DNA of 64,000 bases, taken from positions 14,296 through 78,295 of the forward strand of contig BPII01000006.1 of NCBI GenBank assembly GCA_026004035.1, in the 5' to 3' direction. Below, piece by piece: positions 19,114 through 41,684 of the stretch (position 1 is the first letter of the stretch; each line of letters starts with the position of its first letter). A program made the position numbers and the translations under genes. The DNA comes from Candidatus Sericytochromatia bacterium (GTDB taxonomy: Bacteria > Cyanobacteriota > Sericytochromatia > UBA7694 > JACMQJ01). The notes under the pieces were generated by a model. It saw nothing but the letters and a program-made list of their open reading frames with translations. It had not been told where the DNA came from and made no database searches.

Positions 19114-19170
19114 AATCAAACAAAAATAATAATAACTAATATGTTATTTTAATACTATTAAATAACAAAT

Positions 19171-19641: not shown

Positions 19642-20510
19642 TTAATAGATACTAATTCAGTATAAAGAACTTTTACAGTTGCTTCTCTAAGATTTATTGT
19701 TTTTATACCAAAATTTTCAAATACACGCTTACTTTTTAAAGATTTTACATTTTTTAAATCCAGTTTTTCTTTGTATAATTTAGTGCTAGTTGCATCTCCA
19801 TTTATACCATGCAGTTCTAATTTAGAAAGTTTATCTACTTTATCCAAATTATTTTCAACAATAATAGTAGCTTTTTCTTTTTCTTTAAACTTAAGTGCTA
19901 ACTCAGTTACACAAATTAAGCCAATTAAAGCACTTAGAAATAAACTTGAGAAAATATTATTTAAAATAGTAGATAAAGATTGATTTTCTCCTAAAGTTAT
20001 ATAGTTAAATATACTTGCAACAGCAATAACACCAACAGCATAAACTAATATTGTTTCACTTTCTAGATGATCAGTAGCTAAAACAAGAGAAGAGTATAAA
20101 AGTGCTATTTTAAAATCAATTCCTAACAATGAGTAAGTTACATAAGTTAATCCTACAATAGTTATTAAAACATTTAAAGTAATAAGGTTTATTATTGATG
20201 AAAAATTTTTTCTTAAGTTATTCAAATTTATCAGCAAATAACCTTCAAAAACAATAATAGCAACACAAATTAATATTACTTTTATTCCATTTTTGTCAAA
20301 TACATCAGGATTTATAAGATTTAATCCATATTTACCTAAAATAATTTCAAAAAACATAAAAAATATTATTGAAGGAAAATTTGTTTTATTTGATAATAAA
20401 TGACCTAAGATACCTACTAATAAAATTGATACTAATGTTATTATTATTATTATTATTAGTAAAGAAAGATAATGATGTAAATATTCACCTAAGTTAAATA
20501 TATCATTCAT
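19638..20510 (-). CDS. Hypothetical polytopic membrane protein (possible cation/proton-antiporter-like fragment)
   Basis: About 7 hydrophobic helices. LLVGILGHLLSNK resembles CPA-family N-termini. Its start overlaps the aconitase stop at 20510. Confidence 0.35.
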   Translation of the reverse strand: MNDIFNLGEYLHHYLSLLIIIIIITLVSILLVGILGHLLSNKTNFPSIIFFMFFEIILGKYGLNLINPDVFDKNGIKVILICVAIIVFEGYLLINLNNLRKNFSSIINLITLNVLITIVGLTYVTYSLLGIDFKIALLYSSLVLATDHLESETILVYAVGVIAVASIFNYITLGENQSLSTILNNIFSSLFLSALIGLICVTELALKFKEKEKATIIVENNLDKVDKLSKLELHGINGDATSTKLYKEKLDLKNVKSLKSKRVFENFGIKTINLREATVKVLYTELVSIK

Positions 20511-25175: not shown

Positions 25176-26354
25176 ATGAAATGTTCTATTGTAATGACAG
25201 GAGGAGTAGTAAAAGGAGCCTTTCAAACAGGTGTTTTAAAATCTTTAGCTGAAAGAAATATTATTCCTAGTGTTGTAGTAGGAGCTTCCGCAGGTGCTCT
25301 TAATGCAGGAATGACTACAAAATTAATTGCTGAAGATAATTTTAAACCTGAAGTTATAGAAGATCAAATGATAAAAGTTTGGTTATATGAAACATCTTTA
25401 ATGAATTTATGGGGTGAAAGTACCAACAAAAATAATACTATAAGAGATATTTTAGGAATAAATACTAACCCTTTTATGATAATAAAAAAATTGTCAAATT
25501 TTGAAATAGAAATCTGGGAAAAACTGAAAAAAATTCTTTCACTTTCTTTTTTATCAGTTTTTAATAATGAATCATTAATGAAAGTTTTAAATAACTATAT
25601 AAAAGCACCTAATGAAATATTAAATGATGTAAAATGTGCAGTATCACTAACAGATTTACTAGGACATACTGAAATCATAAATAATCAAAAAATAAATAAT
25701 TATTCTGAATATGTAACATTTGAATTTAAAAAAGGAGATAATGATAAACTAAGAGAAAAATTTAAACTTTTGAGAGAAGTAATATTAGCATCAGCAAGTT
25801 TTCCAGGAATGTTTCCACCTTTTGAAATAGATATAAAAAAAGATGGTAATAAAAGACTATATATTGATGGTGGAATAACAAAAAATGCACCTTTTGGTAG
25901 AGCTATAAAACTTGATTCTGAAGTAGAATACGTTTTTTTAATATCAACTACTAATATAAGTAAGCCTGTAATAAATAGTATTAGCACTTTTACAGATTTA
26001 ATATCTCAATTATATGAAATAATAATAACAAAAGATATAGCCAATGATTATAGAAAAGTAATTCAGATAAATGAAAAAATAAATATATTATCTAATCTTC
26101 TAGAAAAAGATAAAAATAATATTATTATTGATAATAAAAAAAACAATGATTTATGTAAATTAGCTGGTTTTAAAAATGTTAAAGACTATCTCTCAAAAAG
26201 AATTGTAAAAATAATATTTATAGAACCTGAAAAACCGTTGGAAGGTGATCCTTTTGCTGGAATATACAGAAAAGATAATAGAAAAATACTAGAAAACTAT
26301 ATAAATGAAGGTTATAAAGTTGGTAATAAAGTTTTAGATAATTTTTTTAATTAA
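25176..26354 (+). CDS. Patatin-like phospholipase
   Basis: Oxyanion-hole region VMTGGVVKGAFQTGVL and nucleophile motif GASAGALNA (GxSxG). DGG present near DGGITKNAPF. Confidence 0.75.
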   Translation: MKCSIVMTGGVVKGAFQTGVLKSLAERNIIPSVVVGASAGALNAGMTTKLIAEDNFKPEVIEDQMIKVWLYETSLMNLWGESTNKNNTIRDILGINTNPFMIIKKLSNFEIEIWEKLKKILSLSFLSVFNNESLMKVLNNYIKAPNEILNDVKCAVSLTDLLGHTEIINNQKINNYSEYVTFEFKKGDNDKLREKFKLLREVILASASFPGMFPPFEIDIKKDGNKRLYIDGGITKNAPFGRAIKLDSEVEYVFLISTTNISKPVINSISTFTDLISQLYEIIITKDIANDYRKVIQINEKINILSNLLEKDKNNIIIDNKKNNDLCKLAGFKNVKDYLSKRIVKIIFIEPEKPLEGDPFAGIYRKDNRKILENYINEGYKVGNKVLDNFFN

Positions 26355-26541: not shown

Positions 26542-27369
26542 CTACCAATTTTTAAATAAATTAGGTAATAAAATTTCTTGCTTGTTTTTAATAAGCATTT
26601 TTTGTTTATATAAGTAATCTTTATTTGTAAAATTGATTATTTCTATTAAATCATCCTTAAATTTATTTATAAAATTGTTAAATGTATCTTTTTGAAATTT
26701 TGGTTCAATTATGAAGTCATAAGAAAATAGAATGTTATTTTTAATCCAATTCAAGTATGACATAGTTCCAAACCTGTATATATTCATGTATAAGTACATA
26801 GATACTTTAGAAGTCTTTTTTCTTACAAAATTATAATTAGGTATATATATCAATTGACCTTCATTTAAAGTTGATGAGAAAACTGAATTTTCAAAAGTTT
26901 GCAAACCTAGTTTATTATTAGATGGCTTATCAAATATTTCCCAATAAGAATCTCCATATACTTGTATTACCAAAGAATCAAATATTTCTCTATGAATTTC
27001 TTTACCATGATTTTGTCCGTTTTCCACTTCTAGATCCATTTCAATATAACTATTCATTAAATTTGATAGTTCAAAACATAAATCTAGTAATTCTTTATCT
27101 AAAAAATTTATTTTTTTTATAGTCAAATTTGAGTTTTGATTTAATATTTCTATAAACAATGGATGATTTAATACTTCATTTTCTATATTTTTAACCATTC
27201 CTTTATAGTATGTAACAATATTATTTTTATCTAATTCTGAATTATTAATTATTTCATTAAATTTATTCCAATTAATTAAATTAATAATATCTTCATAATT
27301 TACTTTAATTATAAATGGTTTATTTTCATTTATATTTTGTATTAGTTGTTGAATATCAAATACTTTCAT
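26542..27369 (-). CDS. Cupin_4/JmjC-like protein, third paralogue, probably degenerate; last gene of the giant-protein operon
   Basis: EIHREIFDSLVIQVYGDSYWEI and GQLIYIPNYNFVRK align with the HxD and second-His segments of the 407-aa paralogue. H-R-E is kept but Arg replaces the distal His. Confidence 0.4.
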   Translation of the reverse strand: MKVFDIQQLIQNINENKPFIIKVNYEDIINLINWNKFNEIINNSELDKNNIVTYYKGMVKNIENEVLNHPLFIEILNQNSNLTIKKINFLDKELLDLCFELSNLMNSYIEMDLEVENGQNHGKEIHREIFDSLVIQVYGDSYWEIFDKPSNNKLGLQTFENSVFSSTLNEGQLIYIPNYNFVRKKTSKVSMYLYMNIYRFGTMSYLNWIKNNILFSYDFIIEPKFQKDTFNNFINKFKDDLIEIINFTNKDYLYKQKMLIKNKQEILLPNLFKNW

Positions 27370-28579
27370 AATAGATATTAATGATACTATGTTTTAAAAA
27401 ATTATTAATTAACTCCAAAATTAATTCTTTATTTATCTTGGGAAATTTTTCTATTAATTCTTTTATATTAAATTTTTTTTGTTCAAATATATAGTATATC
27501 ATATCAATTAATTCATTTTTGAGAATAACAGATTGATAATTTAAATATATTTCGAAATTAAAATCTTGTTTTGATATACTGAATAAGTTAGTATTTACTT
27601 GAAAGTGTAAATTACAGTTTTCATTTACGGTTTGAGCATATGGTAAATTTATTAAATTACAATTAGGAGTATTTATTATCCAATTTTGATACAATTTTTC
27701 TAAAATAGAACTTATGTTAATATTAGTAAATTTGTTTTTTATATAATTAATGGTACTATTTAGCTCATGTTTAAAATTGTAATTCTTTTTTGTTATCAAT
27801 TTAAAAGAATATAAATCTTGATATAAAGAATTTTTTAAGTATATAAAAAAATCCATAGCACTTATACTTGTAAAACCAATTGTTAAATGTAATGATGGTT
27901 TATAAATTGGTATAACTTTATGAACAAAACCTTTAGGTATATACAAAATATCACCTGGTTCAAGGATATATTCTTTAAAAATACTTTTATTCTTTTCAAA
28001 AAAGTTATCTAATGAGGGTAATTTTTTATTACTTATCCATTTATCCCATTTTTTTTCTTCATATTCCATAAGTTTATATTTAATATGTTTTCTATAATCA
28101 TAATCTGTTGTTATATCAGCTATATACCATTTTTTATTCCCCTCTAAATGAATAATAAAAATATCATAATTATCTATATGTGCTGCAAAAGCATCTTTAT
28201 TTTCATCTGGATAGGAAGAATATAAATTTATCTTAATATCAGTTAAAAATTCTTTTTTTAAAGAATTAACAAATTGAGATAAATCTTTATCTAAATACTC
28301 AATAATGTCTAGTTTTAAAGTAAAACCATTTAACAAAAATTTTCTTAAATTATCTCTGCCTATTATATCTATATCTAATACTTTTTGATCTTTTAATGAT
28401 ACATACAAATTGTATAAAAAATTATTTTCAAGAATATTATTTAATTTGCTCCAATTAAAAATATCTGAAAATTTTTTAGAAGGTTCTTTTTTTATATATA
28501 GATGTTTTCTAGAATAAAAGTTTTTAAAAAAATCTTCTATAGTTACAGGAGAAATAATATCTTTTAAAGTGCTAATCAT
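27356..28579 (-). CDS. Cupin_4/JmjC-domain Fe(II)/2-oxoglutarate oxygenase (ribosomal-oxygenase YcfD/RoxA-like)
   Basis: AAHIDNYDIFIIHLEGNKKWYI (HxD) and LEPGDILYIPKGFVHKV (distal His) match the cupin_4 ROX signature. Confidence 0.6.
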   Translation of the reverse strand: MISTLKDIISPVTIEDFFKNFYSRKHLYIKKEPSKKFSDIFNWSKLNNILENNFLYNLYVSLKDQKVLDIDIIGRDNLRKFLLNGFTLKLDIIEYLDKDLSQFVNSLKKEFLTDIKINLYSSYPDENKDAFAAHIDNYDIFIIHLEGNKKWYIADITTDYDYRKHIKYKLMEYEEKKWDKWISNKKLPSLDNFFEKNKSIFKEYILEPGDILYIPKGFVHKVIPIYKPSLHLTIGFTSISAMDFFIYLKNSLYQDLYSFKLITKKNYNFKHELNSTINYIKNKFTNINISSILEKLYQNWIINTPNCNLINLPYAQTVNENCNLHFQVNTNLFSISKQDFNFEIYLNYQSVILKNELIDMIYYIFEQKKFNIKELIEKFPKINKELILELINNFLKHSIINIYYESI

Positions 28580-29360
28580 TTTTTAAACTAAAATATTCAT
28601 TAACTAAGAAATTACAGAAAGAAATAGCTTTATCTTTCATATCTTTATTTAAATTTTCTAAATAAAAGTTTTCTGGATTGTTTATATATTCGAATAAATC
28701 CATAATTTCTTTTTTTTTATTAGGGTAAAAAATAGAAAATACTTTAATACAAGTATCTATATCATTAGAATAAAAATTAACTTTGTTTAAAAATAGTTCA
28801 AATGATGCTCTAATCAATTTTTTAACAAATTTAAAAAAAATTTTAGTATTTTCTAATGATTTGAAAAGTTCTTTATTATTGTAAAAATCTTTCATTATAA
28901 AGCTTGCTTCATAGAGTTTGTAATTCTTTATATAAAATGATATGTCTTCACCATATAAACATTTAGATAATACTTTAATTGTAAACATTAATTGATTATC
29001 ATTAAAAAGAGTCGTTCTATCAATGATAAATAAATCTATATCCCTAACAAAAGAATTTTTTTTAAGAAATTCTTTTTTATATTCATCCCAAAAATAATAA
29101 AAACTATAGTTATCCTCATTTATTATTAATATTAAATCTATATCGGAATGAAAATCTATTGTTTTGCCAAACAATAATCCACCTCTTAAATAAATACTAC
29201 TTATTGAAGGATATATTAGATAAAGAATGTAATTAATTATTTTTTTTAAAACTTCAAGCCATTTTGTGTTTTTAATATTATCTAATGATAAATTATTTAC
29301 TATATTATATTCTTTATCAATATTTAAATAATATAGATTATCTTTATTTATAGTTATCAT
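28572..29360 (-). CDS. Pol-beta-superfamily nucleotidyltransferase-domain protein
   Basis: YLRGGLLFGKTIDFHSDIDLILII fits the hG[GS]x9-13Dh[DE]h minimal nucleotidyltransferase motif. Confidence 0.5.
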   Translation of the reverse strand: MITINKDNLYYLNIDKEYNIVNNLSLDNIKNTKWLEVLKKIINYILYLIYPSISSIYLRGGLLFGKTIDFHSDIDLILIINEDNYSFYYFWDEYKKEFLKKNSFVRDIDLFIIDRTTLFNDNQLMFTIKVLSKCLYGEDISFYIKNYKLYEASFIMKDFYNNKELFKSLENTKIFFKFVKKLIRASFELFLNKVNFYSNDIDTCIKVFSIFYPNKKKEIMDLFEYINNPENFYLENLNKDMKDKAISFCNFLVNEYFSLKND

Positions 29361-30465
29361 TTTCTATTTCTATAATATTGTTTTTAATCAAATAATTTAA
29401 TAGTAATACTACATCATTTTTTGTTAGATTATTATCTATTTTGTATAAATCCTGTAAATTAAATTTATTAGCTTTTTTAAAAATAAATTCTGCTAACTTT
29501 GAGTATTTTACATCAATAGATATATATTTTTTCCAAAAATATATAATTAAATTTTCTTCTTTATACTCAAATACACTATCCATGTAATCTTTTCTTAATA
29601 AATTAAATTTATCTTCAATACCTATAATATTGTTCATAAAAATAAAAGGAAATTTACAACATTTTTCTCCTTCTTGAGTTTTAATTAAATAATTATAATA
29701 TTCATCAAATAAACTAGGATCATCTAATTTATTTAATAATTTTTCTTTTAATTTTTCTATTATATTAACCCAGTTTGGATCTATATTTAGTTCTTTGTTA
29801 GTTTCTTGTTGAAAAGTTAAGTTTAATGGCAAAGTATCTATAAAATCATTATCATTTACAATAATATTATTTAAAAACCATTCTAAGAAAGAATTTGCAT
29901 TATTATATTCTATTTCTACATTAAGTCCTAAAGCTTTAACATCAGAAACAATTGTGTAATTAGAATTCATTGGAATGTATATAAAATCATTTTTATTCAA
30001 TTTAAATTCATTGCTTTCAAGAGTTGAATTTACTTTCAAATTAAAATAACCTTCCAGTACAAAAAAAAGTATATCCTTATTTTCATATTGAAAGTTAAAG
30101 TAAGAATTTTTATTTAACTTTATAAGTAAACTTGTAGTTATTCTGCACTTTAAATCATCAATAATTTTTAAAATAAATTCTCTTAATTTACTTTCATATT
30201 TATGTATGTTGTATATAACCACATGTCCTTGGCTAACTAGATGTTTATGAATTTCAAATAAACTATTTGGATTAATTCTTTTATAATCATCAAATATTAA
30301 GTTTATATCATATGGAGGTACTTTTTTTGTATTAATTATATTATTTACATTTTCCCAATAGAATTGTAAATTATAATTTCCTAAAAAACATCTCTTTAAT
30401 AAGAAATTATCTTTAAATTGAGTAAAAGTGCATGGTTTAATTATTTCTTCAAAAAAGCTTAGCAT
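29344..30465 (-). CDS. Cupin_4/JmjC-like paralogue lacking both Fe-binding histidines (predicted pseudo-enzyme)
   Basis: Aligns with the 407-aa paralogue: FQYENKDILFFVLEGYFNLKV (H->Y, D->N) and NKNDFIYIPMNSNYTIV (H->Y). Its start overlaps the last codon of the giant gene at 30465. Confidence 0.5.
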   Translation of the reverse strand: MLSFFEEIIKPCTFTQFKDNFLLKRCFLGNYNLQFYWENVNNIINTKKVPPYDINLIFDDYKRINPNSLFEIHKHLVSQGHVVIYNIHKYESKLREFILKIIDDLKCRITTSLLIKLNKNSYFNFQYENKDILFFVLEGYFNLKVNSTLESNEFKLNKNDFIYIPMNSNYTIVSDVKALGLNVEIEYNNANSFLEWFLNNIIVNDNDFIDTLPLNLTFQQETNKELNIDPNWVNIIEKLKEKLLNKLDDPSLFDEYYNYLIKTQEGEKCCKFPFIFMNNIIGIEDKFNLLRKDYMDSVFEYKEENLIIYFWKKYISIDVKYSKLAEFIFKKANKFNLQDLYKIDNNLTKNDVVLLLNYLIKNNIIEIENDNYK

Positions 30466-33400
30466 TATGATTTATAAACTGCTGAAAATGCTCCTTGTGT
30501 TACCTTTACTCTTCTTCTTCTCCAATCCCAGTCTAAAATGATCTTACCTACTATTTGATCACCTCTACTACTATTTGATGTAGCAGCAATTATAATATTA
30601 TCTAATAATCCATATTTCAAAACTTCCTGATATTCTTGACTATCCAATATAGCTTTTAGTTTTTCTGTAAATTTATTTACATTACCATCAACATTTGCTC
30701 CTCCAGATCTTCCTTTAGAAGCTGTAACTAAGTTATTATATACTTTATAAGCATAATCATTATCTTTATCAGTTTTTAAGAATTTATCACCTCCACTAGT
30801 GTATGAAACATCAGCTCCAGATGAATTAACTACTGCAAATCTATTATATACACCTGTTGCTAATGAGCTAGCAGTTGTTCCTGAGTAACCAACAGTAGCA
30901 GAGGTATAGTAAGAAGTATCTCTTCTATCCTCAGCTCCTATATATTTTGTTTTTCTTTTACCAAGTGCTATACCATTAGCAATTTCAGTATCACTTAAAA
31001 CTCCATCTCTATCAGTATCTATATCTATTACTCCATCTTGATCTTCATCATCAAAATAATGAACTTTAAGAAGAATAGTTGCATCATTTACCATACTATT
31101 TCCACCTTTTGCTGATAATGTAATACTTGCAAAACCGTCAGTATCAGTTGTAAAATTAAGATTATCTTTATAAGCTACATTAAAACCTCTAGGATCATCA
31201 CCCATTACTAATTTTCCATCAATATATCCATAATTTAAAACAGCATTTAGTGGACCATTATCATTTATAGTTGATGTTGTAAACTCTTTAGTCTCAAATG
31301 ATTGTATTGTTGGTTCACCAGTAGAAACAAGTTCTATTTCATGTATAGTAGATAATATTCCGACTCCTTTTCCATCTGTATTTTTAAAGTTTAGAACTAA
31401 AGATTTAAGTTTTTCTTGTTCTTGACCAAAATATGTTAATTTTTCGGCATCAAATAATTCCTGACTAAATACACCACTTTGAGGATCTTGTCCTAAAGCG
31501 TAAGATTTTAAAGTATTAGGATCCCTACCTTTAAATCCACCTTCATACATTCTTACAGACCAAGTTTCATCTAAAGGTCCTATACCTGCTATGTTAGATG
31601 ATACAATGTCTATTCCATCAGAGCCTAAATGATAATTATGTTGTAACATAATGGTATTAAAACCTTCTTTTAATACTCCAGAAGGAATATTATAAGTAGT
31701 AGTTCCATTTGTATTACTAACTCCAGGAGGTATTTGTTGACCATTTATATACAAATAAGCATCAGTTTTAGCATTTATTGTTATAGTTTTTGGTCCTGAA
31801 GCTTGAGCTACTGTTAAACCTATTGTCTTTTTTACAAATGTAGTCATAAATTCATATGTATTAGCACCACCAGGAACAGTTGTTCCTTCTTCAAAACAAG
31901 TTCCGTCAACATATGGCATTCCATCAACAGATGGATCATAATTAACCCATCCTGTTAGTTTATTATTTACTTGTTTTTTTGTAGGCTTGATATCTGTAAC
32001 TAAACCTAAGTTGATAGCCATAGCTCTATCAACATACATTTGATTATCACTGTTTATAAGTCTTCCCATACTGTCCTTATAAAAAATTGTATTTTTTGTT
32101 ACTGTTAATTTTAAACCATTTGGAGAAGTTGGATCTAATTCTGCAACCATTGTTGGAGGATTAGGTGCTCCCCAGGTAGCATAAGAATCTACTTTATTAG
32201 TATTATATGTAGCTGCATCCTGCTCTATGTATGTTAGTAATGTATTAGAGAAACTTGGAAAATCAGTATTTGTTATTTCTACTCTTGAAGAATTACCTTC
32301 GTTATACCTTCCTCTTATATTAGTTCCTCTTGGATCAAAACTTATATTTGGTCTATTAGTGTTATTAACCTCATTTTGATAAGAACCTCCTGTAACAAAT
32401 TTACTATTTAGTTGTTGTTTATATGCATAAAAATCAGTTTCAGCATTTTTTCTACCAGAAACTCTTACATTATCTATATTCCAACCGTCACCTTCATTAT
32501 TATCACTATCAGCTTCAAATACAAATTTTATTCTAACATTTGGAGAACCTGCTACACAATTCAAATCATACCTTGATGACACCCATCCTTGATTACCTGG
32601 TAAACCATTTGCATTAACATCTTTTTCTTGTCCACTTTTGTTAGAACCTAATGCTAATTGCCAAGTTACACCATCATCGGTACTGTACCATACAGATATT
32701 TTATCTCCATCATCAACATTACCTCCTCTTGTATTTGTACCAAATCTACTATCAAATTCTACAACAGCATTTTGATATTGAGATAAATCAATTCTTGGTG
32801 ATATTAATTCTCCTTTTGATTTACCTCTTGCAACAACTTCTATATCATCTAAATTCCATCCTCTATGATCATCATTTAACCATTGATCTCCAGCATTAAA
32901 GTAAAAACCTACCTTTTGATCTGTTGTTCCCCAATTTGTGTTTAGTAAGAAATATCTTTGTTGCCAACCATTACTAGACTGTGCAGCAACATCAACTTGA
33001 TTTTTAGTTGCTCCAGGAGCAGTTCCATGGATATCTTCATTACCACTTATTCCTATAATCTTCATTGGAGCACCATTACCAGCTGACTGTATAGCATATC
33101 TTTTATCATATTTTTTTCCATCATTGACACCGATAATTTCTGTTTCAAAATTTTCTCTGTACCTAAGCTCTAATTGATTAAATGTATTACCAATACCAAC
33201 ATTCATATTTCTTAAATCCAATGATCTTACCATATAACCTTCAGGGACATATGGTTTTGATACATATACTTGAAAACCAGGTATCATATCTTGATTATTA
33301 TTTAAAAGAGGACCTTCTTGTCTTTCTACAAAGTCATCTGAACCCTGACTATCATAAGCGTAGGATGGGTTTGCATAAGGACCTGCTAAATTTTTAAGTG

Positions 33401-35579
33401 TGTATAAATTGGCATATGTATTTCCATTAGAATCAATATAACCATTACCCCACCATGTGTCATGAGGATCTATTAAATCAAATAATCCAAATATTGTTGA
33501 ATCTAAACCATAGTCAAAAGTTATTCCTGATACTACAGTACTTGTTTGTGTTGTTCTCTGAGCATTAGATGGATTAACTTTATCTCTTGTATAATTTAAA
33601 CCTATACCATCATAATTAGTAAATAATAAACCACCAAACAGACCTCTTGTATCTTTTAAATGTAAATAAATTCTTTTTAATCCTGAGGCTCCAGTATTAT
33701 TAGTTAAATTAAAAGACATGCTACCGTTATCATTAGCCCATCCACTAACTTGACTAGCTACATTACCATAATTTTCATTCTTTACACGTATTTCAAATTT
33801 AGGTTGATACCATCTAATAGTTTTTCCCAAAATCTTCCAATGAGATTCTACATCGCCCCAAAACATAGTCACAGATTGATTACTTGGAGCTGGCGGTAAT
33901 GGAACACCGCTTGTAGGAACAGCTGTTCCATAATGAGCTACACCTGAGTTAGTACCTCCAAAGTTTTCAATACCAAAATGATAACTATAATTTCCACTGA
34001 AAGCACTATCCCCATTTACAGGAGTTTCTTGCATTACTCTCCATCTAGAACTTAAGCTACCGTCTGTCATTCCGGTAATACTTTGTACATCTCTTTCATC
34101 TAGAACATAATATTGTGTCCATCTATCAGAAAAGGAGACACTAGGACTTAGGTTTCCTATTGAAATATTTCTATTTGAATTTTTAGAAATAGTTTGTATT
34201 ATAGTATTATTATTACTATCTTGTGCATTTGTAGGATAATATCCTAAATTAATATTTGGCTGAGCTGCATCAGGATAATTTTTAGGTATCCCATAAGTAT
34301 CAAAAGCTTTAAGTTCAGAATCATCATATTGATTACCTCCTGAACCATTTAAGGCATCTATATAATCATCACCTATACCAGGACCTAGTATACTTGACAA
34401 AGGAGCACCGCTATTTATATTAGATAGATTTGCACCATTATAAACATTTTCAACATGATCTTTTATAAGAAAAAATTCGTAATTATAATTTGTACCGGTT
34501 GGATCACCAAAAAAAACACTACCTGTTCCTGTTTTGGCTCTATTATTAACAATACGCCATTGTAAATGTTCACTCATTTTGTTTAAATCTCTATCATAAG
34601 GATTAATAAATACTTGTGTCCATTTACAATCATCATAAGGAGCTATGGATTGTGTATTTGGATCATATAAATTCAAGCTTTTTAAAACTCCACTATTTTC
34701 AAATCCTTCATATAAAGCATACGAAATCTCATCAGCTTTAGCTGTTACTCCAGGAGCAAAAACACCTCTATTTGGTTGTAGAGCAGTAATATTAACTTGA
34801 TAAACTTTTGGATCAACACCTGCACCTATATCTTTTATATCAAGATCAGGATCATAAAAAATTCCAGTTTTATTTGCTGAATTTGTAGCTGCAATTGCTG
34901 GATCTAAATGGTTCTCTGCGCGTGAATATAATGGATCATTTATTGAAACATTTAAAACTTCTCTTTCATTAGCAGTTCCTTGTCCTCTTAAACTAACATA
35001 TCTATCAATAGTTGTAGCATAGCTAGCGTTTACTCTATCTACATCCCACATCCATAAATAACCAAGTGTAGAAAAGAAAGAATTACCTAACTCATGATGT
35101 GTATTTGAAACATCATAATAAGTTCTTCCAACTGTACTTGAATTTGGTCTATTTTGATTAAAACTCTCTAATTCCATAGCTCTAGAAGCAAAAAAAGGAT
35201 TATACTGATAATTATAAACTTCTTTGTTATATGGTGTTATTTCTAAATTAGGTTTACAATTATCAATAGATGGAGTTCCATATTTATTTGGTATTATTGC
35301 AGTATTTTTTGTATCAGCCTTTTTATACATCAACTCATTTAGCATTTGTTCATAAATTACATTAAGTTCTTCTATTAAAGTATTTAATTTTGCTTGTAAT
35401 GATGCTATATAGCTTCTTATCCATTCAAGTCCTCTCTCATAATCTTTATCTCTTGATTGTTGATCTGATATTTGTATTATTCCTTGTGAAAAAACATTAG
35501 CATTTGCTTGTGCTATCTGTCTAAGTTGATAATCAGCATTAGTTTTATTATACAAAGATGATGCAGATATTGAAGACAT
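30465..35579 (-). CDS. Giant hypothetical protein, 1704 aa, ~12% Asn, Gly/Thr/Tyr-rich, no signal peptide, N-terminal coiled coil, lectin-like beta-sandwich motifs
   Basis: Single uninterrupted ORF. N-terminus MSSISASSLYNKTNADYQLRQIAQANANVFSQ followed by heptad-like ...LQAKLNTLIEELNVIYEQMLNEL. Repeated GWN(L/I)D(D/N)(I/V)xV motifs suggest galactose-binding-like or discoidin-like domains. Confidence 0.5.
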   Translation of the reverse strand: MSSISASSLYNKTNADYQLRQIAQANANVFSQGIIQISDQQSRDKDYERGLEWIRSYIASLQAKLNTLIEELNVIYEQMLNELMYKKADTKNTAIIPNKYGTPSIDNCKPNLEITPYNKEVYNYQYNPFFASRAMELESFNQNRPNSSTVGRTYYDVSNTHHELGNSFFSTLGYLWMWDVDRVNASYATTIDRYVSLRGQGTANEREVLNVSINDPLYSRAENHLDPAIAATNSANKTGIFYDPDLDIKDIGAGVDPKVYQVNITALQPNRGVFAPGVTAKADEISYALYEGFENSGVLKSLNLYDPNTQSIAPYDDCKWTQVFINPYDRDLNKMSEHLQWRIVNNRAKTGTGSVFFGDPTGTNYNYEFFLIKDHVENVYNGANLSNINSGAPLSSILGPGIGDDYIDALNGSGGNQYDDSELKAFDTYGIPKNYPDAAQPNINLGYYPTNAQDSNNNTIIQTISKNSNRNISIGNLSPSVSFSDRWTQYYVLDERDVQSITGMTDGSLSSRWRVMQETPVNGDSAFSGNYSYHFGIENFGGTNSGVAHYGTAVPTSGVPLPPAPSNQSVTMFWGDVESHWKILGKTIRWYQPKFEIRVKNENYGNVASQVSGWANDNGSMSFNLTNNTGASGLKRIYLHLKDTRGLFGGLLFTNYDGIGLNYTRDKVNPSNAQRTTQTSTVVSGITFDYGLDSTIFGLFDLIDPHDTWWGNGYIDSNGNTYANLYTLKNLAGPYANPSYAYDSQGSDDFVERQEGPLLNNNQDMIPGFQVYVSKPYVPEGYMVRSLDLRNMNVGIGNTFNQLELRYRENFETEIIGVNDGKKYDKRYAIQSAGNGAPMKIIGISGNEDIHGTAPGATKNQVDVAAQSSNGWQQRYFLLNTNWGTTDQKVGFYFNAGDQWLNDDHRGWNLDDIEVVARGKSKGELISPRIDLSQYQNAVVEFDSRFGTNTRGGNVDDGDKISVWYSTDDGVTWQLALGSNKSGQEKDVNANGLPGNQGWVSSRYDLNCVAGSPNVRIKFVFEADSDNNEGDGWNIDNVRVSGRKNAETDFYAYKQQLNSKFVTGGSYQNEVNNTNRPNISFDPRGTNIRGRYNEGNSSRVEITNTDFPSFSNTLLTYIEQDAATYNTNKVDSYATWGAPNPPTMVAELDPTSPNGLKLTVTKNTIFYKDSMGRLINSDNQMYVDRAMAINLGLVTDIKPTKKQVNNKLTGWVNYDPSVDGMPYVDGTCFEEGTTVPGGANTYEFMTTFVKKTIGLTVAQASGPKTITINAKTDAYLYINGQQIPPGVSNTNGTTTYNIPSGVLKEGFNTIMLQHNYHLGSDGIDIVSSNIAGIGPLDETWSVRMYEGGFKGRDPNTLKSYALGQDPQSGVFSQELFDAEKLTYFGQEQEKLKSLVLNFKNTDGKGVGILSTIHEIELVSTGEPTIQSFETKEFTTSTINDNGPLNAVLNYGYIDGKLVMGDDPRGFNVAYKDNLNFTTDTDGFASITLSAKGGNSMVNDATILLKVHYFDDEDQDGVIDIDTDRDGVLSDTEIANGIALGKRKTKYIGAEDRRDTSYYTSATVGYSGTTASSLATGVYNRFAVVNSSGADVSYTSGGDKFLKTDKDNDYAYKVYNNLVTASKGRSGGANVDGNVNKFTEKLKAILDSQEYQEVLKYGLLDNIIIAATSNSSRGDQIVGKIILDWDWRRRRVKVTQGAFSAVYKS

Positions 35580-35747
35580 TAAAAATCTCCTAAATATAAT
35601 TTCTTAAAATAATTATAAAACACTTAAATTTTATATTCTTTCTTTAAACAAAGAATTTACAATGATTTAATAATTTAAAATTTTTTATTTAATATATTTA
35701 TAATTTTTTTTGTTATATAATAGATTTAATTATATTTTAGAATATAA

Positions 35748-36941
35748 ATGATGAATAATAAATTTAGTATAAAAGATTTAACTAAAAAAGATTTAGAAAA
35801 TAAATCTGTTTTAGTTAGAGTTGATTTTAATGTTCCAATACAAGAAAATAAAGTTCTTGATACTACTAGAATAGAAGCATCTTTACCAACAATAAAATAT
35901 TTATTAGAAAATAATTCAAAAGTTATTTTAATTTCACATCTTGGAAGACCAAAAGGTAAAAAAGATTTAAAGTATTCATTAAAACCGGTATATGATTTTA
36001 TAAAAAATAATTTGAATATGAACATTATTTTTTTAGATGATTGTATAGGGGAAAATGTAGAATTAGAAATAAAGAAACAAAGCTACCCATCATTAATTTT
36101 ACTAGAAAATGTTAGATTTTATCCAGAAGAAGAAAAAAATGATAGAAATTTTTCTGAAAAATTATCAAAATTAGCTGATATTTTTGTTAATGATGCTTTT
36201 GGAACAGCACATAGATCTCATTCTTCAACTGTAGGAGTAGCAGAATTTTTACCTACCTATTGTGGTTTTCTTATGGAAAAAGAAATAAATTTTCTTTCAA
36301 AAGCACTAAATCCAGAAAAACCTTTTGTAGCTATTATAGGTGGTGCTAAAGTTTCAAGTAAAATAGGAGTTTTAAAAAATCTTATAAATAAAACAGATAC
36401 GCTAATAATAGGTGGTGCAATGACTTATACATTTTTAAAAGCACTTGGTAAAAATGTAGGAAATTCCTTTGTAGAAAATGATTATTTAGTTACTGCTAGA
36501 GAAATAATTGAATTAGCACAAAAAAATAATTGTAATTTGTTTCTGGCAAAAGATCATGTTGTAGCTGAATCTATTGATTCTGAAAATACTACTATAGTAG
36601 ATGATATACCAAATAATTTATCAGCTTTTGATATAGGAAATAAAAGTATAGATGAAATAATAAAAATTCTGTCAAATGCAAAAACCATTGTTTGGAATGG
36701 GCCTTTAGGAGTATTTGAAAAACCTCAATTTGAAAATGGAACAAAAAAAGTAGCTTTATTTTTATCTACATTAAAAGAAAAAGGAGTTACTACTATAGTT
36801 GGTGGTGGTGATTCTGTGGCTGCTATTGAAAAATTTAATCTTACTGATAAATTCTCACATGTTTCAACAGGTGGTGGTGCTTCTTTAGAATTTCTTGAAG
36901 GAATAGAATTACCTGGTATAAAAGTTATAAAAGATAAATGA
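35748..36941 (+). CDS. pgk: Phosphoglycerate kinase
   Basis: VRVDFNVPI, ISHLGRPKG and GGGASLE signatures. Confidence 0.9.
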   Translation: MMNNKFSIKDLTKKDLENKSVLVRVDFNVPIQENKVLDTTRIEASLPTIKYLLENNSKVILISHLGRPKGKKDLKYSLKPVYDFIKNNLNMNIIFLDDCIGENVELEIKKQSYPSLILLENVRFYPEEEKNDRNFSEKLSKLADIFVNDAFGTAHRSHSSTVGVAEFLPTYCGFLMEKEINFLSKALNPEKPFVAIIGGAKVSSKIGVLKNLINKTDTLIIGGAMTYTFLKALGKNVGNSFVENDYLVTAREIIELAQKNNCNLFLAKDHVVAESIDSENTTIVDDIPNNLSAFDIGNKSIDEIIKILSNAKTIVWNGPLGVFEKPQFENGTKKVALFLSTLKEKGVTTIVGGGDSVAAIEKFNLTDKFSHVSTGGGASLEFLEGIELPGIKVIKDK

Positions 36942-37522
36942 ATAATGCTATAATACTAGCTGGTGGTGAGAGTTCTAGAGTTGGAGAAAATAAAGCTTTT
37001 TTAAAATTTGGAAATAAAACACTAATAGAAATAATTATTGATGAGTTACTCAAATATTTTGACAATATTTCTATTATTACTTTAAATATTGAAGAATATT
37101 CTTTTATAAAAAATTCAAAAGTTAAAGTCTTTGAAGATTTAATAAAAGATAATGCTTCTGTATTAGAAGCAATTTATACTGGTCTTTACTATAGTAATAC
37201 TGAATATAGTTTTATAACTTCTTGTGATAGACCATATATAAATATAGAATTAATAAAATATCTTTATTCTTTTACTAGTGATTATGATGTAATTTGTCCT
37301 ATTTATGAGTTTAAGGCTGTTTCTTTACATGCAGTTTATTCAATCAAGTGTTTAAATCTAATAAAAAACAAAATTGATAAAGGTGAGAAGAAAATTAATA
37401 AATTATTCAGGAATTTTAATGTTAAATATGTTCAAGAAGAAGAGATAATTAAACAATTTGGTAGTTCAAAACACTTATTTCAAATAAAAACCTATTTAGA
37501 TTATTTGTTATGTAAAAATTAA
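36938..37522 (+). CDS. MobA-like NTP transferase (molybdenum cofactor guanylyltransferase-like)
   Basis: N-terminus MNNAIILAGGESSRVGENKAFLKFGNKTLIE matches the MobA GxxLAGGxSxRMGxDK pattern. Overlaps the pgk stop (ATGA). Confidence 0.55.
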   Translation: MNNAIILAGGESSRVGENKAFLKFGNKTLIEIIIDELLKYFDNISIITLNIEEYSFIKNSKVKVFEDLIKDNASVLEAIYTGLYYSNTEYSFITSCDRPYINIELIKYLYSFTSDYDVICPIYEFKAVSLHAVYSIKCLNLIKNKIDKGEKKINKLFRNFNVKYVQEEEIIKQFGSSKHLFQIKTYLDYLLCKN

Positions 37523-37886: not shown

Positions 37887-40800
37887 ATGAAAGATTTATA
37901 CTTTTTAAACAATAATTTATTCAATGAAAATTTCTTATTAGATGAAATTAAAAGATTTCCTGATTTTGATTCAGACATAAGTAATATTTTTGAAGAAATA
38001 AAGCAATTATATAAACCTGACTATTTTATAAAATTAAATGAAGATCAATTAATAGAAGAGTTCATAAAAAAAGTATTAGAAAAGCTAGGATGGGAGTTTT
38101 TAACTCAAGAAAGTCAAACAGTACAAGGTAAGAAAGAAAGACCTGATTTTTCACTTTTTATAGCAAGAGAAGAAAAAGAAAATTATATTTCTAATAAAGA
38201 AAGTCAAAAAATATCCCTTATATGTGAAGCAAAAGCTTTTAATGTTCCACTTGATAATAAAAGAATTAATGACAATCCTCATTTTCAAATAGTAGAATAC
38301 ATGGTTTATCTTAATAAAAAATATGGTTTTTTAACTAATGGTAGATACTGGCGACTTTATAATAAGGAAAAATTTACAGGTAGCAAAATTTTTTACGAAA
38401 TAGATTTACAAGTAATATTTGAAAAAAATGATATAGAAGCTTTTAAATATTTTTATCATTTTTTTAAAAAAGATAGTTTTACAATAAGAAAAAATCAAAC
38501 AACTTTTATAGAGGAAGTAGATAAGAAAAATGAAGAAGTAAAATTAGAAATAGAAGAAAATTTAAGAAATGTAATATATGGTTACCAAGGTAATAAATCA
38601 ATATTTGAGCTAATAGGTAAATGTATATATGAAAGATATCCACATGAAGATTTAGAAGTAATATATGAAAACTCATTATATTTTCTTTTTAGACTTTTAT
38701 TTGTAATTTATTTTGAAGATAAGTTTATTGATGTAATAAAAGATCACATATATTACAAAAAATATTCTTTGAATAAAATTTTAAATGATATAAAATCTTT
38801 AAATAATTTTGATGATTTTGATTTATATAAAGATTTAAAACAAGTATTTAAAACATTAGATGAAGGTGATAAAGATATAGACATACCATTATTTGATGGT
38901 GGTCTTTTTGCTTCAGATAAAGCAAAATTATTATATGGTAATAAAGTAATAGATAATGGTAGCTTAAAAGAAATTTTTGAAACTCTTTTTTACTACAAAG
39001 GTAATAAAAGAGATTTTAAAACTTTATCTATAACACATTTAGGTTCTATTTATGAAGGTCTTTTATCTTTTAGATTTGAAAAAGCTGAGGAAAATATTTT
39101 TTATATAGAATATATAGAAAAATTAAAAAAAGAAGAAAAATTCATAAGTGGTTACTTTGATAATTATGATTATAATAAAATAATTTCTAACAAAAATATT
39201 GAAGTTAAAAATTTAGAAAAATACGAGAAAGGTCAAATACACTTAAAAACTTTATCAAATTCAAGAAAAACAACAGCAAGTTACTATACTCCAAAAGATT
39301 TAGTTAATTTTATGGTAAAAGAAGCTATAGATAAAGCTTTGGAAAATTATAAACCATTAGAAATAAAAATAATAGATAATGCCTGTGGAAGTGGTAATTT
39401 TTTAGTAAATTGTTTGAATTATCTTACACTAAAAGTTTTTGAAAATATAGACAATTACAGTGATATAAAAGAATTAATTTCATTAGAAAATGAAAAAATA
39501 AAATCAACTTTAGATAGTTTTAATTATAAATATAAATATGAAATTGATGAATTTTCAATACTAAAAAGAATAATTTTAAAAAATACAATATATGGAGTAG
39601 ATATTAATTATTTTGCAGTAGAAATAGCAAAACTTGCTTTATGGATAGATACATTTATATTTGGCACACCATTAAGTTTTATAGAACATCATATAAAAAC
39701 AGGTAATTCTCTTATAGGAACAACTATCAATGAATTTAAAGATTTTTGGGAAAATAAGAATAAAGGAGGATTTAACTTTTATGATAGTTTTCTTAAAAAA
39801 TTTGACAATTTAAATGAAGCTTTTCAAAAATTAAGTAACTTAAAAGATACTACAAGAGATGAAATAGAAAAATCAAAAGAAATTTATAGTAAAGAAATAG
39901 AACCTAAATTAAAAGAATTAAACAATTTTTTAAACTTACTTACTTATTTCAAGTTTAAAAAAATAGAAAAAGATAAAGATAAAATAAACAAAATTGATTT
40001 TAATACTAATCTTGAAAATATTCTAAATAATAAAGAAATAGCAACAGATATATATCATTATTCAAAAAAATATTTATTTTTTAACTATGAAATACAATTT
40101 CCTGAAGTATTTACTAGAGAAGACAAAGGTTTTAACATAGTAATAGGTAATCCTCCTTGGGATAAAACAAAGTTTGATGACAAAGATTTTTTCTCTCAAT
40201 ATAAAACAAATTATAGAACTCTATCAAATAATCAAAAAGAAGAATTTAAAATAAATACTTTGACAAAAGATTATATAAAGAAAAAATATGAATATGAAAA
40301 AGATTTTATAGAAAAATCAAATGAATATTACAAAGAAAATTATCCGTATAATAAAGGATCAGGAGATGGAAATTTATTCAGATTTTTCTTAGAAAGAAAT
40401 CTTTCTCTAATATCAGAAAAAGGAAATATTACATATCTTATTCCTTCTGCAATAATGCTTGAAGAAGGTTCTACTGAATTAAGAAAATATATTTTTGAAA
40501 ACTTTAATTTAAATTTTTTTTATAGTTTTGAGAATAGAAAAAAATTATTTAAAGATATAGCTTCAGATTTTGAATTTTCAATATTACAAATAGATAAAAC
40601 AAGAAGAACAGAAAAAATAAAAGTAAAATTTATGATTATAGATTCAAATGATTTATATAATAACGATTATATTGACTATACTATTGATAATTTGAGATTA
40701 TTATCTCCTGATTATTTATCTTTACATAGGTTTATATCTCAAAAAGATATTTCATTAATACATAATTTTTATAGTAAATATAAAATACTTGAAAATAATT

Positions 40801-41684
40801 ACTTAGATTTTAGAAGAGAAATTGATATGACAAATGATAAAGATTTATTTTATGAAAAGAAAGAATATCAGGAAGGAATGATAAAATTATATGAAGGAAA
40901 AATGATTTGGCAATATGACTCTAAGTTTTCTAATCCACAGTATTTTCTAAAAATAGATGAAGTAAAAGAAAGACTGAAATCAAAAGAAATTTATAGATTA
41001 TCTCAAGATGTAAGTATTGCTGAAGAAGAGCTAAAAAACAGATTACAAATTAATTCATTAGAAAATTTTATTTCTTATGATTACAACTATTATAGATTAG
41101 GCTTTAGGGCTATTTCAAATAGTTCAATGGAAAGAAGTTTAATAGCTTCATTAATACCTAAAAATATTTTTGCTGGAAATAGTTTATTTTTATCTATACC
41201 TAAAAAATATTACTTTGATGATAATAGTAGAAACATTTTTACTAAAGAAATAGATATTGAAGTTTTACTTTTTATAAATTCACTATTTAATTCTATAGTT
41301 ATTGATTATATTTTAAGACTAATGATTAAATACAATGTAAATAAAACATATATATATAGATTACCTTTACCACAGCCAAGTAAAGAGGAAATTTATAGTA
41401 ATGAAATATACAAAAAGTTAATGTTTAATTCTTTAAAATTAACTTTACACTATAATTACAATGATTTTGAAGAATTAGCACAAAAGTTTAACATTAATAA
41501 AGAAGATATTCCAATAACAGAAAAACAAGTTGATTTATTAAAAATAGAAAACGATATTTTGGTAGCAAAACTATATGATTTGTCTTCAGAAGATTTGAAA
41601 CATATTTGTTCATACTTTAAAGTCCTATTGAAAAACAAACCTGAATATATAAGTAGTTTATTGAGTGAATATGACATCAAATAA
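37887..41684 (+). CDS. Type IIG/IIL single-polypeptide restriction-modification enzyme (N-terminal PD-ExK nuclease, gamma-class N6-adenine methyltransferase, C-terminal TRD)
   Basis: ERPDFSLF...x20...LICEAKAF is a PD-(D/E)xK motif. TASYYTPKDLV, then IDNACGSGNFL (motif I) and VIGNPPWDK (motif IV, NPPW). About 650 aa downstream is available for a target-recognition domain. No separate S or R subunit genes nearby. Confidence 0.65.
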   Translation: MKDLYFLNNNLFNENFLLDEIKRFPDFDSDISNIFEEIKQLYKPDYFIKLNEDQLIEEFIKKVLEKLGWEFLTQESQTVQGKKERPDFSLFIAREEKENYISNKESQKISLICEAKAFNVPLDNKRINDNPHFQIVEYMVYLNKKYGFLTNGRYWRLYNKEKFTGSKIFYEIDLQVIFEKNDIEAFKYFYHFFKKDSFTIRKNQTTFIEEVDKKNEEVKLEIEENLRNVIYGYQGNKSIFELIGKCIYERYPHEDLEVIYENSLYFLFRLLFVIYFEDKFIDVIKDHIYYKKYSLNKILNDIKSLNNFDDFDLYKDLKQVFKTLDEGDKDIDIPLFDGGLFASDKAKLLYGNKVIDNGSLKEIFETLFYYKGNKRDFKTLSITHLGSIYEGLLSFRFEKAEENIFYIEYIEKLKKEEKFISGYFDNYDYNKIISNKNIEVKNLEKYEKGQIHLKTLSNSRKTTASYYTPKDLVNFMVKEAIDKALENYKPLEIKIIDNACGSGNFLVNCLNYLTLKVFENIDNYSDIKELISLENEKIKSTLDSFNYKYKYEIDEFSILKRIILKNTIYGVDINYFAVEIAKLALWIDTFIFGTPLSFIEHHIKTGNSLIGTTINEFKDFWENKNKGGFNFYDSFLKKFDNLNEAFQKLSNLKDTTRDEIEKSKEIYSKEIEPKLKELNNFLNLLTYFKFKKIEKDKDKINKIDFNTNLENILNNKEIATDIYHYSKKYLFFNYEIQFPEVFTREDKGFNIVIGNPPWDKTKFDDKDFFSQYKTNYRTLSNNQKEEFKINTLTKDYIKKKYEYEKDFIEKSNEYYKENYPYNKGSGDGNLFRFFLERNLSLISEKGNITYLIPSAIMLEEGSTELRKYIFENFNLNFFYSFENRKKLFKDIASDFEFSILQIDKTRRTEKIKVKFMIIDSNDLYNNDYIDYTIDNLRLLSPDYLSLHRFISQKDISLIHNFYSKYKILENNYLDFRREIDMTNDKDLFYEKKEYQEGMIKLYEGKMIWQYDSKFSNPQYFLKIDEVKERLKSKEIYRLSQDVSIAEEELKNRLQINSLENFISYDYNYYRLGFRAISNSSMERSLIASLIPKNIFAGNSLFLSIPKKYYFDDNSRNIFTKEIDIEVLLFINSLFNSIVIDYILRLMIKYNVNKTYIYRLPLPQPSKEEIYSNEIYKKLMFNSLKLTLHYNYNDFEELAQKFNINKEDIPITEKQVDLLKIENDILVAKLYDLSSEDLKHICSYFKVLLKNKPEYISSLLSEYDIK

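Follow-up and report, generated by a model that had tools for sequence, protein, structure and literature searches.

A Sericytochromatia operon pairs a giant protein with intact and degenerate JmjC oxygenases, a candidate protein-modification module

Why should a gene for a giant protein of an uncultured, non-photosynthetic cyanobacterium (Candidatus Sericytochromatia) be followed, in one overlapping run, by three JmjC-type paralogues and a nucleotidyltransferase (NTase)? In the window (the whole stretch of 64,000 nucleotides analysed here), five minus-strand genes make up the operon. The first encodes a 1704-aa protein (KatS3mg068_1067; 30465..35579) and is followed by genes for a 373-aa dead JmjC paralogue of ribosomal-oxygenase (ROX) type (29344..30465), whose start overlaps the stop of the giant gene, a 262-aa NTase of the Pol-beta superfamily (28572..29360), a 407-aa JmjC_2, ROX-like 2OG oxygenase (27356..28579) and, last in the operon, a truncated 275-aa JmjC paralogue (26542..27369). 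From the giant gene to the 275-aa gene, the overlaps are 1 nt (TAATG), 17, 8 and 14 nt. Inspection of the junction sequences finds a clear ribosome-binding site at the giant gene only, where a minus-strand AGGAG Shine–Dalgarno sequence (35587..35591) lies 7 nt upstream of the ATG. Overlapping genes with a Shine–Dalgarno sequence solely at the first of them thus suggest that the four downstream genes would be coupled in translation, a reading that the layout fits. The ORF coordinates agree with the five overlapping genes described in the first-pass annotation, and the junctions are compatible with the co-translation that it proposed.

The small genes are real: a frame of 373 codons would stay open by chance at about 19% GC with a probability near 1e-17 (from base frequencies), so improbable that the ORFs of the operon must be coding. 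The ORF list holds no small ORF and no alternative candidate substrate gene within the operon, and an Rfam search of the DNA gave no matches; promoter and terminator scans were uninformative, the DNA being too AT-rich. An AT-rich spacer of 168 nt (35580-35747) separates the operon from a divergent PGK gene, and at the other end a plus-strand patatin gene (25176-26354) is convergent with the 275-aa gene.

The 407-aa protein matches Pfam JmjC_2 (PF08007) with an E-value of 4.2e-20 and 72 bits (cut-off 22), and its PDB matches are NO66, MINA53, YxbC and YcfD, at about 1e-9 to 1e-4. It retains the iron triad (H134-I-D136 and the distal histidine of GFVHKV) and the 2OG-binding lysine, placed within EGNKKW (EGxKxW); these residues line up with the consensus positions HYDxHD...GHWH and G.K.W of the family. 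Triad and lysine together predict a catalytically competent ROX-type JmjC enzyme, and its length and full-length alignment with relatives are compatible with the three-domain ROX architecture. The likeness to known ROX enzymes (E. coli YcfD/RoxA, Rhodothermus tROX, human NO66 and MINA53) thus covers sequence match, HxD...H and EGxKxW motifs, a size of about 400 aa and the succession of an N-terminal barrel, a helical part and a C-terminal region. The differences lie in the low identity to any known ROX and in the company that the enzyme keeps: its operon also encodes dead paralogues and a giant, non-ribosomal protein. Almost all that is known of bacterial JmjC/ROX oxygenases concerns the modification of ribosomes. 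To our knowledge, the ROX enzymes described so far form homo-oligomers, their targets are Arg or His residues in ribosomal proteins and their genes do not lie next to those of the substrates; we know of no characterised ROX enzyme with a target other than a ribosomal protein.

Among the PDB matches, Bacillus subtilis YxbC (PDB 1VRB/7ZCC) aligns to residues 3-273 of the 407-aa enzyme (E 5e-9). CzlI, a YxbC-like RiPP hydroxylase of the curacozole cluster, is encoded beside czlA, the gene for its polypeptide substrate (PMC11575548), and therefore sets a precedent for a bacterial YxbC-like JmjC enzyme encoded next to the polypeptide on which it acts. CzlI modifies a short RiPP precursor peptide, whereas the neighbour in the window is a 1704-aa protein, RiPP machinery is absent and pseudo-enzyme partners are present.

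Those putative partners belong to the same family. Over its full length the 373-aa protein is paralogous to the 407-aa enzyme (hhalign probability 100%, E 2e-40, 373 columns), and 27 of its 31 relatives match PF08007. Its triad reads Q-x-E...Y, with the proximal His replaced by Gln (beside a conserved Tyr) and the Asp by Glu, and the 2OG-binding Lys is missing; the dimerisation region and C-terminal domain are retained. The 275-aa protein is a further paralogue, shortened at the C-terminus (hhalign 99.35%, E 6e-21); it has no C-terminal domain and scores 21.5 bits against the JmjC_2 cut-off of 22. Its H-x-E is intact, but Arg stands in place of the distal His and the Lys is missing. By these profiles and motifs, the two proteins share the JmjC_2 fold and are not classifiable as active oxygenases. 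When 1.84 billion representatives were scanned exhaustively with the 373-aa protein, 31 matched, five of them at E<=1e-30; these five are the query itself and P0040-P0043, all without the triad. The giant-linked JmjC paralogues cluster separately from ordinary bacterial JmjC_2 proteins, and the dead paralogues form a single old, very rare clade. Those with known context lie directly after the giant gene, in the window and on two further contigs (L001 and L036); another dead paralogue, L1_371, heads a second module on the L001 contig.

Inactive 2OG-oxygenase paralogues are known as partners, among them CRTAP, which accompanies prolyl 3-hydroxylase 1, and JARID2, one of the inactive JmjC proteins. 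The parallel lies in the retention of a dead paralogue that partners or scaffolds an active oxygenase or a complex; CRTAP and JARID2 are eukaryotic, however, and the heteromer in the window is a prediction. Our literature search found no description of bacterial JmjC pseudo-enzymes.

The 262-aa protein carries an intact GG...SDxD...GED motif, with the signature R59-G60...S72-D73-I-D75...G137-E138-D139 invariant in six relatives. It falls below Pfam thresholds itself; PF01909 is matched by three of the six family members (best 1.2e-5) and PF18765 by two, and the PDB matches of its profile, though weak (best 0.0037), are all NTases. Like the ANT/AadA-like and MNT-like Pol-beta NTases (PF01909/PF18765), it combines a G[GS]...DxD...E/D motif in an N-terminal NTase domain with a helical C-terminal half; it differs from them in its sub-threshold Pfam scores and in the gene contexts of its relatives, which are unrelated. 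Homologues number only four among 5.8 billion clusters. Present in the window and L001 and absent from L036, the NTase is a lineage-specific operon member outside the conserved core. We also considered using its relatives to mark the system and rejected this, since the neighbourhoods at L006 and L007 are unrelated.

For these four genes the first-pass annotation had named an intact ROX-like JmjC enzyme, two diverged cupin_4/JmjC paralogues, of which the 275-aa protein was the third family member, and a Pol-beta-type NTase, and all four assignments are borne out by the motifs and profile matches above, the two paralogues falling inside the fold by hhalign (100% and 99.35%) to their 407-aa relative. 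It had also read both iron-binding histidines of the 373-aa protein as changed to Tyr, which is right for the distal position; the proximal residue is Gln.

The giant protein has a high content of G/S/T/N and little K or Cys, and neither a signal peptide nor a TM segment was found in it. All its domains are encoded on the minus strand. A conserved N-terminal domain (aa 1 to about 290; 34710..35579) carries the motifs ISDQQSRDK..YEK.LE.IRTYIASLQAKLN, YQYNPFFGSR, HHELG...YLWxWDVDRINASYATT and LQVNVTALQPNRGVF, with a helical hairpin predicted at aa 6-85. Between the two conserved ends lies a variable series of jelly-roll domains; two of these (galactose-binding-like/Reelin-subrepeat-B-like; 32460..33242) each end in a GWN(L/I)D(D/N)(I/V)xV strand, GWNLDDIEV at aa 907 and GWNIDNVRV at aa 1032, and the second contains an Asp-box, YSTDDGVTW. 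The conserved C-terminal domain (aa about 1590-1704; 30468..30812), the best-conserved part of the family and 82% identical to that of L001, closes with ...GDQIxGKLILDWDWRRRRVxVTQGxFSAVYKS. Neither terminal domain has a relative that we could find in Pfam or the PDB. AlphaFold2 models are too poor to assign folds to the termini: the N-terminal 300 aa reach a pLDDT of 49 overall (about 60-78 over residues 10-80) and residues 766-1704 one of 49.7, where beta-sandwich domains alone could be matched.

The family is small and confined to Sericytochromatia/Blackallbacteria MAGs, often with two copies per genome, and our literature search found no description of it. To judge from its composition and domain types, the giant probably reaches the envelope or cell surface by non-classical export. 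The pairing of conserved termini with a variable middle prompted us to consider a flagellin or flagellar axial protein, for which we find no support: Flagellin_N/C and Flg_bb_rod have no Pfam match at E<=1 in the giant or in 20 N-terminal domains, and the PDB profile search gave no match. A phage tail fibre or other viral protein was rejected also (no PHROG match, and no relative of the N-terminal profile among IMG/VR viral contigs), as was an anti-phage defence role for the giant or its neighbours, PADLOC models matching none of the five products of the operon at E<=0.1.

The first-pass annotation had described the giant as lacking a signal peptide, bearing lectin-like GWNxD(D/N)(I/V)xV motifs and headed by a helical region; the first two hold, and the third agrees with the predicted N-terminal hairpin of a low-confidence model. 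Its main rationale, an extraordinarily Asn-rich (~12%) substrate for an Asn hydroxylase, fails. The measured Asn content is 9.6%, against an average of 9.25% for the remaining window proteins and 10.6-14.9% for the four small ones; the composition reflects the AT bias of the genome, and we rejected Asn-richness as a pointer to an Asn hydroxylase.

What links the JmjC set to the giant is gene order. The succession giant, dead JmjC, active JmjC is found on three sequenced contigs (the window, L001 and L036; GC 25-41%), on which the giants are 33-55% identical to that of the window. In L001 the giant (55% identical) precedes two modules, with products of 375-261-407-275 and 371-401-147... aa. In L036 (GC 41% versus 25%), the giant is 33-36% identical and a dead 396-aa JmjC gene begins 17 nt later, followed by an active 456-aa JmjC and then a third, active JmjC. 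The order probably recurs a fourth time in a pair of contigs from sample 3300050046: one ends 19 nt past a giant gene (P0006), and the other reads cut gene (309 aa), JmjC 414, JmjC 380, DUF6365 and 279 aa, the two being linked by the orthology of its JmjC protein P0028 to the third JmjC of L036 (48% identity). A metagenome scan with a five-sequence alignment led to one locus only, L036. The lineages with this synteny are few and all in one class. Every one of these genomes has at least one intact JmjC enzyme beside several dead ones, the dead copies being 2/3 in the window and at least 4/6 of the complete copies in L001, whose seventh copy (the cut 147-aa gene) appears to be without H-x-D/E.

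The module does not accompany every giant. In L037, where the giant is 53% identical and PGK/MobA lie upstream as in the window, a PD40/peptidase gene follows and no JmjC gene was found after the giant. None of about 25 loci from other giant subfamilies has the module. Other subfamilies do adjoin genes for modification enzymes of other kinds: 2OG-FeII_Oxy_3, a sulfotransferase, GT2, NeuB/CMP-NeuAc synthetase, an ATP-grasp enzyme and a methyltransferase. The conserved neighbourhood that the first-pass annotation had looked to is therefore upheld for the giant/dead/active JmjC core in L001 and L036, and does not extend to the NTase, L037 or the roughly 25 other loci.

We give a probability of roughly 0.45 to the reading that a dedicated, probably heteromeric hydroxylase of active and dead JmjC subunits acts on the giant before export. 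Co-transcription and the pairing of giant and hydroxylase in distant relatives suggest that the JmjC enzymes probably modify or handle the giant, which its gene neighbourhood makes their probable substrate. The operon's first, well-translated gene would yield the giant, with its helical N-domain, beta-sandwich (jelly-roll/CBM-like) middle and conserved C-domain, and the four coupled genes would supply a cytoplasmic modification module dedicated to it. In that module the 407-aa enzyme would hydroxylate a side chain of the giant, or a small number of them; the 373-aa protein, and perhaps the 275-aa one, may heteromerise with it through the retained ROX dimerisation and C-terminal domains and serve as substrate-binding or scaffold subunits; the NTase would be a lineage-specific accessory. 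In favour are the overlapping genes with a Shine–Dalgarno sequence at the giant alone, the recurrent order, the rarity of the dead clade and its constant place behind a giant gene or at the head of a module, the constant retention of an intact enzyme, the precedent of CzlI and the other modification enzymes encoded beside other giant subfamilies; against it stand the giants of L037 and the other subfamilies that lack the module, the ribosomal targets of all characterised ROX enzymes, the failed Asn argument, the low-confidence models of the giant and the small number of lineages, all of one class, that show the synteny.

The JmjC set might instead target a ribosomal protein or translation factor, like YcfD, NO66 and MINA53, or a small peptide, its place beside the giant being inherited gene order. 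In PDB and profile searches the 407-aa enzyme does match ribosomal oxygenases best, L037 has a giant without the module, and a distant JmjC_2 relative (P0031) adjoins a lasso-peptide gene cluster, which argues that the family serves other substrates too. Yet the order persists across lineages that share only 22-41% protein identity, stand 16 GC points apart and have different flanking genes; the JmjC set is joined to the giant gene by a start/stop overlap, and no small ORF or further candidate substrate gene accompanies it. We consider such another target unlikely.

Less likely again is a mainly non-catalytic role, in which the JmjC-fold proteins act as chaperones, assembly factors or export adaptors of the giant and hydroxylation either can be dispensed with or has a regulatory part, such as that of an O2/2OG-dependent switch. 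Dead copies are in the majority, an active member is missing from the first L001 module and the most constant neighbour of the giant is a dead JmjC. At least one intact HxD...H copy is nevertheless kept in each lineage, accompanied in the window's 407-aa enzyme by the 2OG Lys, which argues that catalysis is under selection. It is very improbable that the four small genes belong to a mobile or defence island or are decaying duplicates without present function: a sharp GC fall (18-20% against 31% for the giant gene), a nearby type IIG restriction-modification gene (37887-41684) and a match of the 407-aa protein to phage family PHROG_8014 would favour it, but the GC offset recurs in L001 and, smaller, in L036, the restriction-modification gene has no conserved counterpart in L001 or L037, PADLOC, IMG/VR (giant N-terminus) and a tblastn search of phage records (407-aa protein) gave nothing, the repeat search found no meaningful repeats and neither repeats nor an integrase flank the operon genes, and long open frames at 19% GC need selection to persist.

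Whether the dedicated hydroxylase amounts to a new protein-maturation system, in which an active and dead JmjC heteromer serves one giant, non-ribosomal, probably surface-exposed protein, is a larger claim, which we hold to be possible but doubtful. If true, the giant would be the first substrate of a bacterial ROX-type enzyme among non-ribosomal proteins, and a JmjC pseudo-enzyme partner would be known from bacteria for the first time; the NTase would add a second modification in some lineages, and the module would offer a simple bacterial model of pseudo-enzyme partnership among 2OG oxygenases. A JmjC set dedicated to an envelope-type giant would broaden the substrate range of JmjC/ROX enzymes, and the giants themselves, an unannotated family of non-photosynthetic cyanobacteria, are a plausible major cell-surface component of this poorly known lineage.

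The five minus-strand ORFs proposed in the first-pass annotation were recovered at exactly the positions it had assigned them, on a piece of chromosome (GC ~25%) from a Candidatus Sericytochromatia MAG of a hot-spring community. A gene for a giant protein of 1704 aa (30465–35579; identical match KatS3mg068_1067) is followed by genes for proteins of 373, 262, 407 and 275 aa, with junction overlaps of 1 (TAATG), 17, 8 and 14 nt. Because a Shine–Dalgarno sequence (AGGAG, 7 nt upstream) precedes only the giant gene, the four small genes most likely depend on translational coupling, their products being made in smaller amounts. Their GC content is 18–20%, against 31% for the giant gene; by our own calculation, a 373-codon open frame would arise by chance at this composition with a probability of ~1e-17, and the improbability of such long frames argues that the four ORFs are maintained by selection. 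The operon lies among housekeeping genes: on one side are those for aconitase, an amidohydrolase and a patatin-like protein, on the other a divergent pair, PGK and a MobA-like NTP transferase, and then a gene for a type IIG restriction-modification enzyme. The PGK and MobA-like (PF12804) genes overlap by 4 nt, and all three close relatives have the pair in divergent orientation next to the giant gene: the window (35748–37522, +) and comparison loci L001 (5806–7571) and L037 (547–2312). Such coupling of PGK to a nucleotidyltransferase is unusual to our knowledge, and might be a sign of a phosphoglycerate-derived, nucleotide-activated compound. The type IIG enzyme just past this pair (37887–41684, +) is complete at 1265 aa (PADLOC REase_MTase_IIG, 1082 bits; Eco57I/MmeI methylase domains) and has no conserved counterpart in L001 or L037.

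By sequence, the protein of 407 aa is a genuine JmjC_2 enzyme (Pfam E 4e-20), with NO66, MINA53, YxbC and YcfD among its PDB matches; its H134-x-D136, distal His and EGxKxW Lys are all intact. The 373-aa protein alone has no Pfam match, and is a full-length paralogue of the 407-aa enzyme (hhalign probability 100%, E 2e-40), 27 of its 31 relatives matching JmjC_2. Its metal site was initially described as having both His changed to Tyr, which is half right: the residues there are Q-x-E...Y, with the 2OG Lys lost as well. A shorter paralogue, the 275-aa protein (hhalign 99.35%, E 6e-21) still has H-x-E but neither the distal His nor the C-terminal domain. Paralogues without an intact iron triad (hereafter dead) form one clade and are extremely rare: 1.84 billion representatives, searched exhaustively, gave five matches at E≤1e-30 (the query itself and P0040–P0043), all lacking the triad. 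A rough NJ tree places every giant-linked paralogue in a grouping apart from ordinary bacterial JmjC_2 proteins, so diversification of the set in place seems to have preceded the split of the two giant sub-clades. In the 262-aa protein the Pol-beta nucleotidyltransferase (NTase) motif (GG...SDxD...GED) is intact, and its few relatives provide the link to PF01909/PF18765. It accompanies the JmjC genes in the window and L001 only; relatives elsewhere lie in unrelated contexts.

The giant belongs to a small family, with 21 homologues among 5.8 billion clusters and 25 loci in a scan of 185,579 species genomes, every one of these loci in a MAG of Sericytochromatia or Blackallbacteria; a genome often carries two. 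Members share a strongly conserved N-terminal domain of ~280 aa, a variable middle and a conserved C-terminal domain ending LILDWDWRRRRVxVTQGxFSAVYKS; neither terminus has a relative in Pfam or PDB. In the window's giant, aa ~200–766 form a clade-specific region. AlphaFold models are poor (pLDDT ~49), with an N-terminal helical hairpin and several β-sandwich domains, which Foldseek matches to galactose-binding-like jelly rolls (a Pleurotus lectin, Reelin subrepeats, GH2 sugar-binding domains and the InhA2 peptidase domain). The GWNxD(D/N)(I/V)xV motifs at aa 907 and 1032 are modelled as the closing strands of two such domains, so their original designation as lectin-like is acceptable at the level of fold. 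The premise that the giant is extraordinarily Asn-rich, the core of the first-pass rationale, fails: its Asn content is 9.6%, the window's other proteins together have 9.25%, and the small ones exceed both values. Its composition is G/S/T/N-rich and low in Lys, with four Cys, a pattern that also holds in its homologues, one of them encoded in a genome of 41% GC. Such composition is typical of extracellular bacterial proteins and suggests that the giant is extracellular; neither a signal peptide nor a TM segment was found in it.

Other large proteins occur in the window. A cluster of envelope-type proteins (2603–18629, −), G/S/T/N-rich and very Lys-poor, includes an 806-aa porin-like protein, SLH-domain and CarboxypepD_reg/Big-domain proteins, a 975-aa DUF11/DUF7619 protein and a 1617-aa GEVED/SdrD_B protein more extreme than the giant (11.7% Asn, 14.3% Gly). 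A 1085-aa protein (46894–50151, +) consists almost entirely of WD40 repeats (at least 17); cyanobacteria commonly have such WD40-repeat proteins. Within the giant family, P0007 and P0008 (L002, 10001–15088) carry a biotinyl/lipoyl-like barrel-sandwich insertion at aa ~215–290, directly after the conserved N-terminal domain (Pfam Biotin_lipoyl, 3e-5), and two mutually paralogous unknown proteins (340 and 390 aa) are encoded upstream of the L002 giant. In MAG STL-CYA2 (L005, 15683–24845; L031), a second copy, ~14 kb from giant P0018 on its downstream side, is represented solely by numerous short pieces of ORF (tblastn against the query N-terminus, 78% identity in the best segment) and is either a pseudogene or an indel-ridden assembly.

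Downstream JmjC genes recur beside other giants. In L001 (giant 55% identical, same upstream genes) two modules follow the giant, 375-261-407-275 and then 371-401-147.... The second of them holds the orthologues (32–42% identical) of the proteins of 373, 407 and 275 aa in the window, and its 401-aa protein is the only copy in L001 with an intact triad. This tandem duplication (13262–20013) leaves a first copy whose three JmjC-fold proteins all lack the triad, its 407-aa member reading Y-x-Q...I. The sole metagenome locus found with the dead-paralogue profile, L036 (GC 41%), carries giant P0004 (33–36% identical), followed after 17 nt by a dead 396-aa JmjC gene, a putatively active 456-aa one and a third, also predicted active, that runs off the contig. 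This third protein is 48% identical to P0028, on whose contig the order is cut gene, JmjC 414, JmjC 380, DUF6365, 279 aa, then GT41, radical-SAM and GT2 genes. The sample that yielded this contig also contains giants P0005 and P0006, on contigs that break 19 nt past the giant, within the next gene. Counting against a link, the giant of L037 (53% identical, same upstream genes) is followed by a 225-nt spacer and a PD40/peptidase gene, and the NTase is confined to the window and L001. The association of module and giant is one of synteny in a handful of uncultured genomes, and one close relative lacks the module.

The best-supported reading, to which we give a probability of about 45%, is that a dedicated JmjC hydroxylase set acts on the giant. 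The set would modify it in the cytoplasm, with the retained dead paralogues as binding or scaffold partners through their ROX dimerisation and C-terminal regions. There is precedent in CzlI, a YxbC-like JmjC protein whose gene adjoins that of its polypeptide substrate, czlA (PMC11575548). Another co-occurrence of JmjC and NTase around a peptide substrate surrounds P0031, a distant JmjC_2 protein seen on 68 contigs: it adjoins a lasso-peptide cluster (L033/L034/L035, 7785–17068; Asn_synthase-type cyclase, PqqD, Transglut_core3, ABC exporter, HPr-kinase-like protein and NTP_transf_5 nucleotidyltransferase), with a 52-aa ORF just upstream of P0031. It is rather unlikely that the JmjC set acts on another target and has merely inherited its place beside the giant, and less likely again that the JmjC-fold proteins are mainly non-catalytic, with a chaperone role. 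Weakest, and quite improbable, is a mobile or defence island or a set of decaying duplicates, since no PADLOC, PHROG or viral relatives and no flanking repeats were found and the small ORFs are under selection. The first-pass observation is partly confirmed, and its proposal of a JmjC/NTase maturation module is partly supported: the ORFs and families are right, the Asn argument fails and the description of one metal site is half right. The known kind to which this system would belong is that of JmjC hydroxylases of proteins or peptides whose genes accompany those of their likely substrates; neither the giant family nor a bacterial JmjC pseudo-enzyme clade is described in Pfam, NCBIfam, PADLOC, PHROGs, PDB or the literature we found.

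Other giant subfamilies have different neighbours and carry the module in none of the loci examined, which likewise counts against a link. P4H-type 2OG oxygenases (one fused to a sulfotransferase domain), GT2 and GST adjoin the giant in L003 (4942–9682), and NeuB, CMP-NeuAc synthetase, a capsule-synthesis-like protein and GST in L004 (14011–19331); GST lies beside giants in several loci. A subfamily of ~2000-aa giants (L015–L032; for example, L023, 16188–19556, and L018, 5743–9986) has a conserved neighbourhood of its own, with a 1120-aa TPR and Ser/Thr-kinase protein directly downstream and a PQQ β-propeller protein, an ATP-grasp enzyme, a methyltransferase and two 290-aa coiled-coil proteins upstream. 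The presence of other modification-type enzymes beside these subfamilies hints that the giant family may generally be modified, by different enzymes in each lineage.
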